A stretch of DNA of 40,750 bases from Deltaproteobacteria bacterium (GCA_011390535.1 JAABSF010000001.1:1-40750); one strand, 5' to 3'; positions 9,501 through 35,097 are shown, counted from the stretch's first letter. Made by a program: numbers and translations. The notes: generated by a model from the sequence alone, not told the origin.

Positions 9501-10712
9501 ACTTATGGAGCAAAATCGCTCGTAAAGGAAGGTGATTGGGTAAAACCTGGAACTATGATTTGTGAGTGGGATCCTTTCTCTTCTCCTATTGTTACAGAGA
9601 TTAGAGGGATAATCAAATTTGGGGATGTTATCGAAGGGGTCACGGTCAAAGAAGAACTGGATGCCAATACCGGCTTGTCCAGAAAGGTCATTATTGAATC
9701 TACTGATCCGGATGCCCGTCCAAGGATTTCCATCAAGGATGAAGATGGGAACACAAAACTGCTCTCTAATGGTGCTGATGCGAGATATTTCCTTCCTGTA
9801 GGAGCTAATATATTTGTAACTGAAGGAGAAGAGGTTATATCTGGTGATGTTCTGGCGAAAATCCCCAGGGAGACTACAAAGACGAAGGATATTACCGGTG
9901 GTCTTCCCAGAGTAGCCGAGCTTTTCGAAGCCAGAAAACCCAAGGAATATGCGGTTATTAGTCATATAGACGGAGTCGTATCTTTTGGAAAAGACACGAA
10001 AGGAAAACGAAAAGTAGTTGTTACACCTGATGTTGGCGAGGCTCAGGAATATCTGATTTCAAAAGGAAAGCATGTTTCAGTGAGGGAGGGCGATTGGGTT
10101 CGTGCCGGTGAGAGGTTAATGGAAGGGGCTGAAAACCCACACGATATTCTTTTGGTTTTGGGCGAAAAAGCGCTGGCTAAGTATCTCGTGGATGAAGTGC
10201 AGGAGGTTTACAGACTTCAAGGTGTCGGTATCAATGACAAGCACATTGAGATCATAGTGAGGCAAATGCTTCGCCGTATCCAAATAACGGATGTGGGCGA
10301 CACGAGCTTCTTGATAGATGAGCCTGTTGAGAAAAATGTATTTGAGGAAGAAAACAGGAGAGTGATTGCCACAGGCGGAAAACCGGCGGTTGGCGATCCC
10401 CTCCTTTTAGGAATTACAAAAGCATCTCTTAGCACCGAGAGCTTCTTGTCGGCATCAAGTTTTCAAGAAACCACGAAAGTACTTACAGAAGCTGCTATCA
10501 AGGGAAAAACTGATTATCTGAGAGGCCTAAAAGAAAATGTTTTGATGGGTAGACTCATTCCTGCCGGAACTGGTCTGGGCGCCTACAAACGCCTCACAAT
10601 GCATGTAGATTATCCTGAAGAAGAGTTTTTTGGAGAAGGAAAAGGCTTTAATGAAGATGAAGAACTGGATTCTGATGAAGATCCTGAATTTGCATCTGTA
10701 AGCGAAGAATAA
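6513..10712 (+). CDS. rpoC: DNA-directed RNA polymerase subunit beta'
   Basis: 1399-aa ORF with the Zn-binding [23 protein letters not shown], the catalytic [16 protein letters not shown] motif and conserved trigger-loop/bridge-helix regions. GGAG precedes the ATG. Confidence 0.99.
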
Positions 10713-10718
10713 CAGTAT

Positions 10719-11558
10719 TCAACCTGACAGGATTTCTTTAAGCTCTTCGTTTGTGCATAGCTCTTTTTCCACCAGAAAACCTAAAAGTCTTCTCAAAATT
10801 ATCTCATCTCGTTCAATCAAATCCTCTAGGGTTTCAACTCTGGTCTCTATCATTTTGGTTTCTTCTCTGGCGGAGATGAGCTGAGCTTTGAAATCCGTTA
10901 GTTTTCTCTCAATGGATGAGACAGGAGGGTTCTCGCTGGATATGCTGGAAGGCGATCTTGAGACTCTTTCTTTATCTTCAGAAGTTTTTTTGTTTTCCAA
11001 GTAATCGGATGTAATAGTTGTACTTGTCTCAAAATCTTCAGTCGTTAACTCTCTGCCGTCTAAATGAAGTGATGGAGAAATACTGTGCCTGCTACGCGCA
11101 GAGTCTTTCGCTCTCCTCTTCAAGGGAACTCCAAAATACTTTCGCAGCAATCTGTTCAGTGTGCTGTATGTCGTGAAATTGGAACGTATGTTTGATTTGG
11201 TTAATACTCTCAAGTTATCAAGCGTATCTAAATTCAGCGGCTCAACCATAGCTACATCTAAGAAGTTCCCCACAGTTTCTTTGTTGAAAGGAATCAGTTT
11301 GTGGGTTTGGCAAAAAGACAAAGGAACCATATCCAAGACATCTTTTGGTATTTCCCGGTCCTCCAACTCAGCAACGGGGATATGGAGTTGACGACTTAAT
11401 ACAAACACCAAATCAAGTTCTTTGACCAACCCCAGCTCTACCATTATCTGACCTAAGGCTCCACCCCACTGCGCCTGCTCTTTAAGAGCTAGTTGAAGAT
11501 CATCTTCATCAATCAATCCACCATCCACCAAAAGCTCGCCGATTTTTTTTCTTCCCAT
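10719..11558 (-). CDS. Stand-alone GspE-N/MshEN-type domain protein with a Ser-rich linker and a C-terminal coiled-coil tail; candidate c-di-GMP receptor
   Basis: The N-terminal ~140 aa resemble the type II secretion/T4P ATPase N-terminal (T2SSE_N) domain, but no ATPase domain follows. I place the start at the ATG at 11558 (M12 of the tracked ORF), because AAGGAGGA lies 7 nt upstream. The longest ORF runs to 11591. Confidence 0.7.
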   Translation of the reverse strand: MGRKKIGELLVDGGLIDEDDLQLALKEQAQWGGALGQIMVELGLVKELDLVFVLSRQLHIPVAELEDREIPKDVLDMVPLSFCQTHKLIPFNKETVGNFLDVAMVEPLNLDTLDNLRVLTKSNIRSNFTTYSTLNRLLRKYFGVPLKRRAKDSARSRHSISPSLHLDGRELTTEDFETSTTITSDYLENKKTSEDKERVSRSPSSISSENPPVSSIERKLTDFKAQLISAREETKMIETRVETLEDLIERDEIILRRLLGFLVEKELCTNEELKEILSG

Positions 11559-11614
11559 AGACCCTTTCCTCCTTACTGAAGGATACGACAAAAATCAAAG
11601 TCACCGCTTTAACC

Positions 11615-11659
11615 AGCTCCCATCCCGAAACCGTCCCGTCGAAGGATTGGGGCGGGACG
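11615..11659 (-). promoter_or_regulatory. Intergenic motif plus GC hairpin upstream of the MshEN-type gene, related to the element at 33711-33765
   Basis: The 7-bp stem CGTCCCG (11632-11638) pairs with CGGGACG (11653-11659). The adjacent AGCTCCCATCCCGAAACC contains a 15-mer identical to the reverse complement of 33748-33762. Confidence 0.35.
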
Positions 11660-11734
11660 AGCCTGTCTGCAGAACTAACGGATACCTCTACAAGTTTAAC
11701 CAAAAGCACGAATATTGAAAAAATAAAAAACAGC

Positions 11735-13927
11735 TCATTTCGGAGTGTCTTTTTTTTCTTCCAAAAATTTCCGAATATTTTTTCTCGCACGGTGTAAACG
11801 TGATTTAACCGCAGGTACCGAAAGATCTAAAAAGTGGGCGGTCTCTTCAGATGTCATTTCCTTCCCATCTCGCAGCAAGAGAACCGCGCGATCGGTTTCG
11901 TTTAGACCTCTCAACGCTTTTTGAACGTCCAGGAGGATTTCTCGACGCAAAACATCTCTCTCCGCATCCGGCGCGTTGGATATTGCTTTGGATTGCTTGC
12001 TTGAAAGATCATTAATAGACACGTGTCTGTTTGGATCATTTCGAGCGCCTCTTTTGTTACCCTGAAATCCATCTAAATACTTTGTCGCGGCTTCATATGC
12101 GTCTTGCACAACGTCATGGGCGTCTTGTTGGTGTTTGCAGTAACGGCGAGCGAAGTGCAGCAGACTGTTTTCAAAACAATGCACGATTTCGTTCAATACA
12201 TCTGTATCTCCACTAGCGGCGCGATGAGTCAAATCGTCAGGGCTGCAAGGTTTTTCGGTGACCTCTAAATTTTTTTTTTTTGACAATAAAGAAGGCAAAT
12301 AGTCTGACGGCGGTTCTATTCCCATTAATTCGAAAGCGGTTGCCGCTATATTGCCGAGACCTTTGTTTTTAATGGAATCATTTAAAGTAAGGTCCGGATT
12401 ATTTGGAGCGTAAAGGATTAAAAACACTGGGTTTAACGTGTGTGAGGTTTTGGGAGAAGGCGCGCCTGATGAGTCTCTCTTTATCTCGCCTGTTTTGCTG
12501 TCTTTCATGAACATTTCGTCAGCATTTCCATGATCCGCGGTTATTAAGGCGCAACCATTGAGCGAGGAAACCGCGGATAAAATCTTTTCTAAACAGAGAT
12601 CTACTGATTCAACCGCGATTCTTGTAGATCTAAGGTTGCCCGTATGACCTACCATGTCTCCGTTTGCATAATTTAGTCTTGCAAAATGAGGCTTCTTTTC
12701 TTTCAACGCTTGGATGAACTCATCGGTTACCTCCCCGGCCTTCATCCAGGGCCGCTCCTCAAAAGGCAAACGGTCCGACTCAACTTCTATATAAGTTTCC
12801 AGATCTTCATCAAAAGCCTCGCTGTGATTACCATTCCAGAAATAGGTTACATGACCGAATTTTTGTGTCTCTGCACAAGCCACTTGACGATATTTGTTTT
12901 TAGAGAGGTATTCTCCCATGGTATGAGAAAAACGTGGAGGTGGGAGGAGGTAGTTCTTGGGAATGCCCAGATCCCCATCGTAACGAATCATACCTGCATA
13001 GAAAACTTCGGGTACACGGACGCGGTCAAATTTGTCAAAATCTTCTTCTTCAAAAGCTCGACTAATCTCTAATGCTCGATCTCCTCGGAAGTTGAAAAAA
13101 AGCACAGCGTCGCCATCTTCTATTGTGCCTACAGGTTTTCCCTTTTCTTCAATTACAAATGAATCCAAAAATTGATCTGTTATTTTTGGGTCTTCATTTC
13201 GATACACCTCTATAGCTTCTCTTGCTGATGCGAAACGCCTGCCTTCGCCTAAGACGTGAGCTCTCCAGCCCTTTTCTACAATTGACCAATCGGATTCATA
13301 TCGATCCATGGTGACTTTCATACGCCCCCCCCCGGATGCGATACTGTAGTTCCGTCTTTCTTTTTCGTTGATTGATTTGAAGATAAGCTCAACTTTATCA
13401 ATGTATTCAAGGGCAGACTTTTCCGGCACATCACGACCATCTAGCAGGGCATGAACAAAAAGTCTCTCTATGTCTTCTTCATCGGCTCTCTTTATCAAGG
13501 CCTCTAAATGATCAATATGACTGTGAACATTGCCGTCACTGACGAGTCCGATGAGATGTAGTGACCCTTTGTTTTTGCACCGGCTGACCATCGTTTTCCA
13601 GGTTGTAGTTTTGAAAATCTTCTTGGTTTCGATGGCTTTGTTTACAAGCTTGGCACCTTGATCCAGTATTCTGCCACCCCCGAGAGCGTTGTGACCTACT
13701 TCACTGTTTCCCATATCTTTGTCGCTGGGCAAGCCTACTGCGGTTCCATGTGCCTTGATGGACAAATTTGGACGCTCTTTTAAAAGCCGGTCAATTATTG
13801 GTGTATACGCAAGAGCTACAGCATTTCCCTCGTCTTTTTTTCCAACGCCCACACCGTCTAGAATTACAACGACAACAGGACCTTGAGGTTTTTCAAAAGA
13901 CTTGGATTGTTTCAGTTTCCATTCCAC
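11735..13927 (-). CDS. gpmI: 2,3-bisphosphoglycerate-independent phosphoglycerate mutase (residues ~1-552) fused in frame to an ECF-sigma-like module (residues ~565-730)
   Basis: The start is GTG, with GGGAGA 6 nt upstream. iPGM motifs are present: VVVILDGVGVG, GNSEVGHNALGGGR, NYANGDMVGHTGN, TADHGNADEM. The C-terminal part has sigma-70 region 2-like (LLHFARRYCKHQQDAHDVVQDAYEAATKYLDGFQG) and region 4-like (LNETDRAVLLLRDGKEMTSEETAHFLDLSVPAVKSRLHRARKNIRKFL) sequence. It is a single ORF as the sequence stands. Confidence 0.8.
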   Translation of the reverse strand: MEWKLKQSKSFEKPQGPVVVVILDGVGVGKKDEGNAVALAYTPIIDRLLKERPNLSIKAHGTAVGLPSDKDMGNSEVGHNALGGGRILDQGAKLVNKAIETKKIFKTTTWKTMVSRCKNKGSLHLIGLVSDGNVHSHIDHLEALIKRADEEDIERLFVHALLDGRDVPEKSALEYIDKVELIFKSINEKERRNYSIASGGGRMKVTMDRYESDWSIVEKGWRAHVLGEGRRFASAREAIEVYRNEDPKITDQFLDSFVIEEKGKPVGTIEDGDAVLFFNFRGDRALEISRAFEEEDFDKFDRVRVPEVFYAGMIRYDGDLGIPKNYLLPPPRFSHTMGEYLSKNKYRQVACAETQKFGHVTYFWNGNHSEAFDEDLETYIEVESDRLPFEERPWMKAGEVTDEFIQALKEKKPHFARLNYANGDMVGHTGNLRSTRIAVESVDLCLEKILSAVSSLNGCALITADHGNADEMFMKDSKTGEIKRDSSGAPSPKTSHTLNPVFLILYAPNNPDLTLNDSIKNKGLGNIAATAFELMGIEPPSDYLPSLLSKKKNLEVTEKPCSPDDLTHRAASGDTDVLNEIVHCFENSLLHFARRYCKHQQDAHDVVQDAYEAATKYLDGFQGNKRGARNDPNRHVSINDLSSKQSKAISNAPDAERDVLRREILLDVQKALRGLNETDRAVLLLRDGKEMTSEETAHFLDLSVPAVKSRLHRARKNIRKFLEEKKDTPK
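12270..12281 (-). repeat. A12 homopolymer (T12 on the + strand) at the iPGM/sigma-like junction
   Basis: Counted directly: T at 12270, ten T at 12271-12280 and T at 12281. It encodes S-KKK-N (TCA AAA AAA AAA AAT). Confidence 0.95.
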
Positions 13928-33710: not shown

Positions 33711-33765
33711 TTTCCATCCCAGAACCCGGGACCGAGGCGCCGGGAGGGGTTTCGGGATGGGAACT
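33711..33765 (+). promoter_or_regulatory. Long imperfect GC-rich hairpin carrying the GGTTTCGGGATGGGA motif upstream of the kinase gene
   Basis: The inner stem is CCCGG (33725-33729) with CCGGG (33740-33744). The outer arms TTCCATCCCAGAAC and GGGGTTTCGGGATGGGAA pair with bulges. The 15-mer at 33748-33762 is the reverse complement of 11619-11633. Confidence 0.35.
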
Positions 33766-33819: not shown

Positions 33820-35097
33820 GTGAGCGCAAAAAAATATGAAGTTGTAAAGAGGCTTGATGCAGGGGGAATGGCGGAAGTTTACATCGGGCGAACGGTAGGG
33901 ATCGCAGGGATCACAAAAAAGGTGGCTATTAAGAGGGTTTTACCCCACCTGGCCAAGAACGAAAAATTTATGAGCATGTTCTTGGATGAAGCAAGGGTGG
34001 GAATGAAGCTGAGTCATGCGAATGTGGTGCAGGTTTTCGATGTAGGCGAGGAGGAAGGTACATATTTCATAGTTATGGAGTTTATCGACGGTGTCAGCCT
34101 GAAAGATATCATAGACATCTTGAAAGACAGGAGACAGGTTGTCCCCTTGGGAGCCGCTGTTCAGATAGCAGCAGAGGCTGCCAGAGGGCTTAGTTATGCG
34201 CATAATGCTAAAGATGAATGTGGAACACCTTTGAATATCGTCCATCGTGACGTTAGCCCACCGAATATATTGGTATCAGTGCAAGGTGAAGTAAAAGTTA
34301 CTGATTTTGGGTTGGCAAAAGCTGCAAGTCAGCTTGAAACTACAGATCCGGGGGTCGTTAAAGGGAAGTTTTCTTATCTCTCTCCCGAGGCTGTGGATGG
34401 AGAGGTTGTAGACAAGAGAGCGGATGTTTTTTCTCTAGGCATAGTTCTTTTTGAACTATTAACAGGGAAGAGGCTGTTTTTGGGAGAGACGGATTATCAG
34501 ACAGTGCAACTTGTTCAACGAGCCCATGTACCTTCTCTTAGAATGCTGAATCATACGGTTCCCGAGTTGCTTGACGATATCGTCCATAAAGCACTGGCAA
34601 AGGATAGAGGCTCACGTTACCAAACAGCAGAAGAGTTGGCAGATTCTTTAACCAGTTTCTTGTATACATCCGGGGTCAAGGCAACAAGTCGTCATGTAGC
34701 AGAGCTGGTGGCGGCGGTGAGAGGAGATCCCAAGAGCGCGGCAGCAAGGAAACTGGCTGAACAGTTAATGAGAGAAGAACTGTTTGGAGGGCTTTCCGGC
34801 GCAGGAATCTCAGGGTCTCCAGCGGCAGCCCTTTTAGATGGAAGCATCGGCGATTCAATAGTAGACCCTCGTAGCTGGATCGGAGATCTCGATTTTGAGG
34901 AAGAAGACGGCAACAGGCTGTCGGGGGAACAAAGAAGGTTCGCGAAAAGTATAGACATCGATATTTCGGGGCTGGACTTGCCGGACACTGATTTTGGCGA
35001 AACGGCGCCCCCTCATTCTGTAAAGGGAGAAACTCCCGACGAAAAAGGGGAGAAGTCGGGATTTTTTCGTCGGCTTTTTGGGGAAAAAGACAAATAA
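33820..35097 (+). CDS. Ser/Thr protein kinase (Hanks type) with a disordered C-terminal tail
   Basis: The start is GTG with an AGGGAG RBS. Kinase motifs: GAGGMAEVY, VAIKRV, HRDVSPPNIL, DFGLAK, YLSPE. Confidence 0.88.
   Translation: MSAKKYEVVKRLDAGGMAEVYIGRTVGIAGITKKVAIKRVLPHLAKNEKFMSMFLDEARVGMKLSHANVVQVFDVGEEEGTYFIVMEFIDGVSLKDIIDILKDRRQVVPLGAAVQIAAEAARGLSYAHNAKDECGTPLNIVHRDVSPPNILVSVQGEVKVTDFGLAKAASQLETTDPGVVKGKFSYLSPEAVDGEVVDKRADVFSLGIVLFELLTGKRLFLGETDYQTVQLVQRAHVPSLRMLNHTVPELLDDIVHKALAKDRGSRYQTAEELADSLTSFLYTSGVKATSRHVAELVAAVRGDPKSAAARKLAEQLMREELFGGLSGAGISGSPAAALLDGSIGDSIVDPRSWIGDLDFEEEDGNRLSGEQRRFAKSIDIDISGLDLPDTDFGETAPPHSVKGETPDEKGEKSGFFRRLFGEKDK

Follow-up and report, generated by a model that had tools for sequence, protein, structure and literature searches.

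The MshEN domain is one of the few receptor domains for c-di-GMP (cyclic dimeric GMP) that can be predicted from sequence, and almost all functional knowledge of it comes from fusions to ATPases. Here we describe a gene for an MshEN protein that has no ATPase. It lies on a stretch of 40,750 nucleotides (nt) from a Deltaproteobacteria bacterium (GCA_011390535.1, JAABSF010000001.1:1-40750), and we refer to this whole stretch as the window. The closest described systems are MshE (5HTL) and the GSPII-B and GSPII-C domains of PilF. In MshE and PilF these domains are placed ahead of a hexameric T2SSE ATPase, and they tune the motors of pili or secretion. The window protein shares with them the double motif, the 5-residue spacer, the helical bundle with its alpha/beta subdomain and, by prediction, the one-ligand binding mode, but a linker and a helical tail take the place of the ATPase.

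The contacts between the domain and its ligand are known from MshE, which holds c-di-GMP through the backbone amides of Gly3 and the next residue in each motif and also grips it with triangular Leu clusters from positions 2, 17 and 21 and with Gln24 (PMC5013675). The Arg at position 1 merely stacks on a base, its mutation costs less than 5-fold in affinity, and the relaxed search pattern of Wang et al. allows [RKPN] at this position (PMC5013675). For PilF it was shown that Lys at position 1 of motif I and Leu at position 1 of motif II give an affinity above that obtained with Arg, which widens the position-1 consensus to R/K/L (PMC11731258).

It is already known that MshEN domains occur detached from ATPases. 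Wang et al. 2016 described two such ATPase-less proteins: PA3740 of Pseudomonas aeruginosa, which combines MshEN_N with a divergent N1, binds c-di-GMP and is connected with swarming, and FrgA of Myxococcus xanthus, with the architecture MshEN - unknown - HEAT (PMC5013675). Among the 17 MshEN-domain proteins of M. xanthus, MXAN_7500 carries the binding motifs and is a candidate (PMC8844925). The window protein likewise joins a free-standing, predicted c-di-GMP input to uncharacterised sequence. However, its tail (a heptad helix, the residues R-D-E and a hairpin) is not among the architectures of Wang et al. and has no Pfam or NCBIfam model, and our literature search found no studied member of the subfamily composed of MshEN domain, linker and R-D-E tail. 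The novelty lies in the tail, a module that recurs but has so far gone unannotated, and in the subfamily defined by it.

Motifs and fold of the MshEN domain

The gene, as taken from the open reading frame (ORF) list and its translation, and the two parts of its MshEN domain are located as follows.

10719..11558, minus strand: complete coding sequence, 279 amino acids (aa) plus stop, with an MshEN domain, a disordered linker and a C-terminal helical module
11388..11546, minus strand: predicted 53-residue c-di-GMP-binding unit (MshEN_N) with motif I (residues 5-28), spacer (29-33) and motif II (34-57); matched by NF053729
11127..11384, minus strand: MshEN_C, a T2SSE_N1-like alpha/beta subdomain, residues 59-144; from Pfam PF05157, model confidence and Foldseek

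Residues 5-57 correspond exactly to positions 11546-11388. Motif I reads KIGELLVDGGLIDEDDLQLALKEQ (residues 5-28), motif II reads ALGQIMVELGLVKELDLVFVLSRQ (residues 34-57), and the translation gives AQWGG as the 5-residue spacer between them. Checked by regular expression, motif I agrees with the extended published consensus throughout and motif II everywhere but at position 1, which is Ala34. The predicted ligand-contact residues are present in both motifs (G7/G36, I6/L35, L21/L50, L25/L54 and Q28/Q57). The NCBIfam model NF053729 ('c-di-GMP_motif') scored 57.6 bits against a cut-off of 38 (E 7.6e-16) and covered profile positions 1-53 of 53; in the whole-genome scan the same protein scored 59 bits. 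As the model is matched from end to end and well above its cut-off, the motif pair is not a chance match. The second subdomain, which is the part modelled by PF05157, gave 52.9 bits over profile positions 2-86 of 90 (residues 59-144). An earlier note, made from the DNA alone, had claimed the motif pair at 11388-11546, the spacer of exactly five residues and agreement with the consensus at the hydrophobic, Gly and Gln positions, with Lys leading motif I and Ala leading motif II. All of these claims hold, and the profile search that it had proposed was positive for both halves of the domain.

In the 279-aa protein PF05157 was the sole family found by Pfam; PilZ and ZAS were absent and the T2SSE ATPase (PF00437, Walker A/B) was not reported at E<=1. 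The earlier note was therefore right that the protein has no ATPase domain. By its domain content the protein clearly belongs to the MshEN receptor class, with one defining residue, at position 1 of motif II, in doubt. It is not a GspE/PilB ATPase, and no features were recognised that would mark it as an anti-sigma factor.

The fold was assessed with an AlphaFold2 model that was built on an alignment of 49 rows and reached an overall predicted local distance difference test (pLDDT) of 78; it replaced an earlier, poor run on 11 rows (pLDDT 54). MshEN_N consists of four helices in this model (residues 6-12, 18-31, 35-41 and 47-58). Averaged over blocks of 10 residues, the pLDDT was 74 for residues 1-10, 87-93 over residues 11-60 and 91-96 in MshEN_C, with 87-96 over residues 11-140 as a whole. 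A Foldseek search against the PDB returned exclusively MshEN-type domains as top matches (9g1w, 5htl, 7lkm, 8pdk and XpsE-N). V. cholerae MshE with c-di-GMP (5htl) aligned over 140 columns with a template modelling (TM) score of 0.84 and a root-mean-square deviation of 2.3 A, and c-di-GMP-bound PilF GSPII-B (8pdk) gave a TM score of about 0.75. The best single match was PilF GSPII-A (9g1w), a non-binding domain, and the matches also included PilB-N with PilZ (7lkm) and GspE-N1 in complexes with GspL. The sequence search against the PDB recovered PilF (E 7e-30), PilB and MshE (5htl, E 7.5e-11). The modelled two-subdomain MshEN fold is complete, with the four-helix bundle and the alpha/beta T2SSE_N1 subdomain.

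Predicted binding of c-di-GMP

We consider it likely from these motifs that the protein binds c-di-GMP. In 69 members of the subfamily, conservation of G3, L2, L17, L21 and Q24 is about 88-99% for each residue in motif I and in motif II, as one would expect from selection for ligand binding. The earlier note had also raised the concern that the residues at position 1 might abolish the binding pocket. For motif I this concern can be dropped: Lys5 falls inside the published sets of stacking residues, and Lys is found at the same position in PilF GSPII-B of Thermus thermophilus, in DgPilB2 and in CtPilB, all of which bind more tightly than MshE, with nanomolar values of 13.5 nM for DgPilB2 and 53 nM for CtPilB (PMC11731258). 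As Lys thus occurs at motif I position 1 of the tightest known binders, Lys5 is no defect. A second obstacle is known from PilF GSPII-A, where an extended, capped helix alpha-1 blocks binding (PMC12002112). In the window protein motif I is preceded by no more than the four basic residues MGRK, so this obstacle cannot exist here.

Several points weigh against a c-di-GMP receptor. For motif II the concern about position 1 stands, because Ala34 lies outside every published set (PMC5013675, PMC11731258). This position holds Arg in MshE and Leu in GSPII-B, and unlike these the Ala side chain is too short for stacking on guanine, which is a genuine caveat. In the subfamily the same position is Pro in 37/69 members, a residue inside [RKPN]. 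Furthermore, tight packing between the subdomains can block binding in spite of perfect motifs, and binding was abolished altogether in an engineered variant of PilF GSPII-A in which Ser39 (and Ala41) of the native domain was retained (PMC12002112). Pfam and NCBIfam searches with the tail of this protein and of eight relatives returned no family. Next to wider-subfamily members lie genes for TPR proteins, for a PilZ-receiver protein and for large proteins without assigned function, and there is no conserved pathway neighbour.

On balance we favour, with moderate confidence, a c-di-GMP receptor or adaptor of the MshEN (T2SSE_N / GSPII) class that works without a secretion or pilus ATPase. The earlier note had suggested the same role and had called the protein an orphan; the role is still the best-supported reading, but the word orphan does not apply as the tail defines a subfamily of MshEN-linker-tail proteins. 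In such a receptor the N-terminal four-helix bundle would take up one c-di-GMP. The contacts to each guanine would come from Gln28 or Gln57, from the backbone amides of Gly7 or Gly36 and from the clusters I6, L21, L25 and L35, L50, L54, and one of the bases would be stacked on by Lys5. Read-out of the signal might then run through MshEN_C, which in GspE and PilB is a protein-docking surface, with the flexible linker tethering the conserved C-terminal module to the MshEN domain. This module (heptad helix, R-D-E and compact hairpin) would most likely mediate dimerisation and/or the binding of a putative partner.

In a different explanation the MshEN domain has lost useful affinity for c-di-GMP, and the protein is a scaffold or decoy that works independently of any ligand by protein contacts alone; it might, for instance, use MshEN_C (N1) to dock to a component of a type IV pilus or type II secretion platform and so compete with PilB/GspE. 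Ala34 would fit such a role, and so would the precedents for MshEN-fold domains that do not bind, XpsE and PilF GSPII-A (PMC5013675, PMC12002112), the latter being the domain that tops the PDB fold matches. The fold neighbours PilB-N/PilZ and GspE-N1/GspL show that this fold is used for docking, and PilB-like MshEN-ATPase genes exist in the genome. However, both non-binding domains carry several substitutions of Gly3 and Gln24, none of which is present here. Every contact residue apart from position 1 of motif II is canonical, and the degree to which these residues are kept in the subfamily is hard to explain without ligand binding. There is also no pil or gsp gene in the neighbourhood. We therefore regard a ligand-independent scaffold as unlikely.

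The genome codes for at least four GGDEF proteins, so the organism should be able to make c-di-GMP. In the genome assembly, which is 66% complete, there are 12 matches to NF053729, five of them above the cut-off, and these include the PilB-like frames of 564 and 649 codons. Genes with c-di-GMP motifs or GGDEF domains lie on contigs C72, C56, C403, C239, C11, C573 and others of this genome (G000). The 12 motif matches and the GGDEF genes together indicate a sizeable c-di-GMP network.

Linker and C-terminal module

The part of the protein that follows the MshEN domain was divided into two features.

10923..11117, minus strand: disordered linker rich in Ser, Thr and charged residues, residues 148-212; from pLDDT, composition and gapped alignment columns
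10722..10916, minus strand: C-terminal module, residues 215-279, with a heptad helix, the invariant R250-D251-E252 and a hydrophobic helix-turn-helix at the protein end

The pLDDT stays below 50 over residues 148-202, and 14 of the 65 linker residues are Ser. In the alignments the length and sequence of the linker vary freely among relatives, and its columns are gapped and unconserved. By contrast with this, the module at the C-terminus is conserved: the model places helices at residues 215-264 and 270-278 (block-mean pLDDT 79-91), and R250-D251-E252 are followed by IILRRLLGFLVEKELCTNEEL at the very end of the window protein. The Ser-rich linker and the heptad-like C-terminal helix had both been described in the earlier note and are borne out by composition, pLDDT and conserved columns.

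A word-based search found about ten full-length relatives with 39-92% identity, which all end in the invariant ...ERDE.(I/V)L(R/K)..L.(F/L)(L/V)..K..(C)T..EL... We define the tail pattern as R-D-E followed by (V/I)(L/I)(R/K)x(L/I/V)(L/M)x(L/F)(L/I)(V/I)xK(G)hxTxxE(L/I), with which an MshEN protein terminates. A profile of residues 200-279 was searched against 1.84 billion representatives at E<=1e-3. The profile retrieved 139 proteins, and the match lies nearly always within a few residues of the protein end. In a scripted check 62 of the 66 matches that are at least 200 aa long and have one tail copy carried MshEN_N at the N-terminus. The shorter matches resemble fragments from contig ends or internal starts (e.g. 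P0028, which is almost identical with the C-terminus of P0048). One protein, P0022, has extra N-terminal sequence of no identified family ahead of the MshEN domain. Where the tail is found there is one copy per genome.

R-D-E is invariant in 26 diverse tails. The conserved hydrophobic positions 234, 237, 241, 244, 248, 255, 258 and 262 (plus the D251 slot) follow a 3-4 heptad spacing, and from residue 254 on hydrophobic residues occupy more than one face of the helix, in agreement with a coiled-coil stalk capped by a small helical bundle. Coiled-coil look-alikes of the tail (GreA_N, FlaC and others) were dismissed as they are below threshold, and a feature search of the ESM Atlas with residues 205-279 gave no usable match. 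In the structure search of the Atlas the nearest cluster was a family of MshEN-only 'hypothetical proteins' that is commonest in Myxococcota, and other ATPase-less MshEN clusters appeared as well. On sequence grounds the protein belongs to an unannotated subfamily with an MshEN domain, a linker and an 'RDE tail', which was delineated in this analysis and for which databases have no model.

The hairpin at the end of the tail could also be a third, degenerate MshEN half-motif, serving as an extra ligand site or as an autoinhibitory lid that c-di-GMP displaces; the hairpins would then be paired by the coiled coil or folded back on the N-terminal domain. This idea comes from a profile-profile comparison with hhalign, in which the last 24 tail residues align without gaps on motif I (probability 51%, E 1.6e-4) and have the G-h-h-x4-L-x3-L part in common with it, and it would agree with a tail that is almost confined to MshEN_N proteins. 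The match is weak, however. The equivalent of the Gly at position 3 is off by one residue, the terminal Gln is missing, and the monomer model is silent on contacts between tail and N-terminal domain. A third half-motif thus seems very unlikely to us, and dimerisation and/or partner binding by the module is the function we would still expect in a c-di-GMP receptor or adaptor.

The combination of MshEN domain, linker and R-D-E tail recurs across dozens of lineages. If the tail is an output module, these proteins would form a new class of c-di-GMP effector, and they would also open a way into the c-di-GMP signalling of bacteria with predatory or social habits, which are little known and for the most part uncultured. 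For the window alone the outcome is a modest, well-supported annotation with a testable hypothesis and no new principle.

Start codon, gene ends and integrity of the frame

One further feature marks the start of the gene.

11568..11574, minus strand: Shine-Dalgarno-like AAGGAGG, 9 nt 5' of the ATG; read directly from the sequence, with the block kept in the related loci L012 and L015

Besides the ATG at 11558 the ORF list gives an alternative longer start, TTG at 11591. We take the ATG as the true start, because the N-termini of the orthologues coincide there (M(A/G)RK(R/K)(L/I)GE is common to 11/11 in the alignment) and because of the upstream AAGGAGG. At the other end of the gene rpoC converges, and its stop lies 6 nt from the stop of the MshEN-tail gene (window 10712-10719). 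In L012 and L015 the two genes converge just as tightly. A consensus scan detected no terminator-like hairpin between the two converging stops, and the consensus scan for promoters and terminators in 10500-12000 gave no match. The 279-aa protein has no transmembrane segment (maximum Kyte-Doolittle hydropathy 1.38) and is, judged by its hydropathy, a soluble, cytoplasmic protein.

These gene ends also bear on the question of whether the frame is the remnant of a truncated pilB or gspE. Its N-terminal domain is closest to PilB and PilF, and automatic annotation labels some relatives 'PilB'. But the frame is intact and has a good ribosome-binding site, and with the rpoC stop so close there is no ATPase remnant downstream. 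Moreover, dozens of lineages have proteins, at 26-92% identity, that agree with it in length and architecture and end in a conserved tail unrelated to an ATPase. A truncated-pilB pseudogene is effectively refuted by this conservation, and we assign it next to no probability.

Gene neighbourhood and the adjoining sigma factor

Directly upstream of the MshEN-tail gene lies a sigma factor.

11735..12269, minus strand: extracytoplasmic function (ECF) sigma module, fused here to iPGM; from Pfam Sigma70_r2, r4 and r4_2

The MshEN-tail gene starts 176 nt downstream of the iPGM-sigma ORF (11735-13927), in agreement with the earlier note, which had placed it directly downstream of that gene. All orthologous loci have the same order of glycerate kinase, iPGM, ECF sigma, MshEN-tail gene and converging rpoC-rpoB. 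The order iPGM-sigma-MshEN facing rpoC is confined to a narrow, family-level clade of orthologues. The gap between the sigma and MshEN genes, 176 nt in the window, is as short as 13 nt in one lineage and measures about 190 nt in the closest relatives and 300-600 nt in the deepest relatives; that of L015 differs from the other close relatives by a called 34-codon ORF. In L017 and L018 the gap holds a 98-codon gene on the opposite strand, so the two genes are not one operon there. Sigma and full-length MshEN-tail orthologues occur in the same 3 genomes (one family) and in 0/20 others of the order, which is compatible with a functional pair or, equally, with shared descent. Outside the clade, proteins with the same tail (31-36% identity) adjoin unrelated genes and no sigma gene. 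The large upstream genes of the wider subfamily are homologous merely among three genomes of one family, and the more distant relatives of the sigma factor have other genes downstream.

ECF sigma genes typically have the gene of their regulator next downstream. The MshEN-tail protein could accordingly be a c-di-GMP-dependent, anti-sigma or partner-switch-like regulator of the adjoining ECF sigma factor, specific to this clade. The same-strand order of sigma and MshEN genes at all orthologous loci whose flanks can be read, with protein identities as low as about 37-40%, points in this direction, as do the 13-nt gap in one lineage, the co-occurrence in the 3 genomes and, as a weak hint, contigs from an RNA library (11566-11838) that bridge the sigma stop and the spacer. 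On the other hand, wider-subfamily members with the same tail are not beside any sigma gene, distant sigma relatives are followed by different genes, the opposite-strand gene separates the two in L017 and L018, and the 176-nt spacer of the window contains a dispersed repeat. The co-occurrence falls within a single family-level clade and is confounded by shared descent. The protein itself has no zf-HC2 (PF13490), no H-x3-C-x2-C and no RsiG-type motif, and its only Cys residues are C83 and C268.

RsiG, the c-di-GMP-dependent anti-sigma factor for sigma-WhiG in Streptomyces, binds c-di-GMP through paired E-x3-S-x2-R-x3-Q-x3-D helix motifs. The likeness to RsiG/sigma-WhiG is in the idea only, namely that a helical protein of the cytoplasm, with its gene next to that of a sigma factor, might link the activity of this factor to c-di-GMP: the RsiG motifs are absent from the window protein, RsiG is without MshEN and sigma-WhiG is not an ECF factor. 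A complex prediction for the closest intact sigma factor and the MshEN-tail protein gave 0.00 in both runs; controls were not run and the result weighs neither way. Our literature search found no paper that ties MshEN to anti-sigma function. Nothing that was tested lends support to an anti-sigma role, a functional tie to the sigma factor is putative, and we judge such a role to be quite unlikely. If it were true, this would be the first MshEN domain to feed c-di-GMP levels into an ECF sigma factor, with the conserved R-D-E tail as a new module for the binding of sigma or a partner.

Spacer repeat and transcript traces

The spacer between the sigma and MshEN genes contains the following element.

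11618..11672, no strand assigned: copy of a short genome-wide repeat, with a GC hairpin and GGTTTCGGGATGGGA; not gene-specific

In the 3.4-Mb assembly the 15-mer GGTTTCGGGATGGGA has 9 exact copies and 35 copies within 2 mismatches, compared to 1 for the reversed control. Copies lie at window 33748-33762 and on G000 contigs C20, C191, C272, C307, C412 and C593, and some of them pair in inverted orientation, 10-20 nt apart. The depth of metagenome contigs was 61-187 in the bin of the repeat versus about 3-18 in its flanks, a difference of about ten-fold. The 15-mer had been considered as a shared regulatory site of the MshEN-tail gene and the kinase gene at 33820, and this was rejected as it is dispersed genome-wide. 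The repeat looks like a dispersed element of the repetitive extragenic palindromic (REP) or miniature inverted-repeat transposable element (MITE) type, and its presence explains in part why the spacer varies in length. A search of the spacers of the window and of L017 against Rfam returned no family and no c-di-GMP riboswitch.

In the salt-lake metatranscriptome run X11 two contigs of 151 nt match the window at 100% and together cover 11566-11838. They span the sigma stop (11735) and the spacer and end 8 nt short of the MshEN ATG. No X11 contigs fell on the MshEN-tail coding sequence or on the remainder of the sigma gene, and the run is uninformative on protein expression. The two contigs are a weak hint of read-through transcription from the sigma gene, and carry-over of DNA could also account for them.

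Further observations on the neighbouring genes

In the window iPGM and sigma share one frame across a run of 12 A at about 12270-12285. In L012 the run is 11 A long and the frames are separate, although that of sigma stays open upstream of the TTG called as its start, and L015 has 11 A plus a 2-nt difference, which results again in a fusion of 747 aa. The fusion thus depends on the length of the homopolymer, 12 A here compared to 11 A in L012.

The window sigma factor also lacks, in frame, 18 residues of region 2.3/2.4 (ASIKTWLTKLVMSACSKK) that are present in L012 and L015. Exactly at 12056-12058 an 18-kb contig from run X2 carries 54 bases more than the window, and at the same place one X4 contig ends loosely; the reverse complement of this loose end reads ASIKTWLTKL. 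These contigs show that the deletion is not fixed in the population. It is probably a minority variant or an assembly artefact, and an intact sigma factor may exist in the population. Region 2 of the sigma family contains two Cys that hardly vary (C32 and C74 in L012), and many sigma relatives with 35-40% identity (the P0155-P0274 set) carry a fused, anti-sigma-like zf-HC2 at the C-terminus, which the window sigma factor does not.

The opposite-strand gene in the gap of L018 (5487-5783, minus strand) and L017 (253-549, minus strand), which is absent from the window, is a conserved 98-codon ORF, MKIEVTEAG...SGFG-TGA-GGPRWG..., with one in-frame TGA. A conserved GC hairpin, GGGGCGTGTCCCC, follows directly 3' of the TGA. 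The ORF has a weak, sub-threshold similarity to IscA/HesB selenoproteins (E about 3e-4), and gene callers report it in fragments, one with 31 aa and one with about 59 aa. Its sequence makes it a candidate for a HesB-like selenoprotein with a selenocysteine insertion sequence (SECIS) element.

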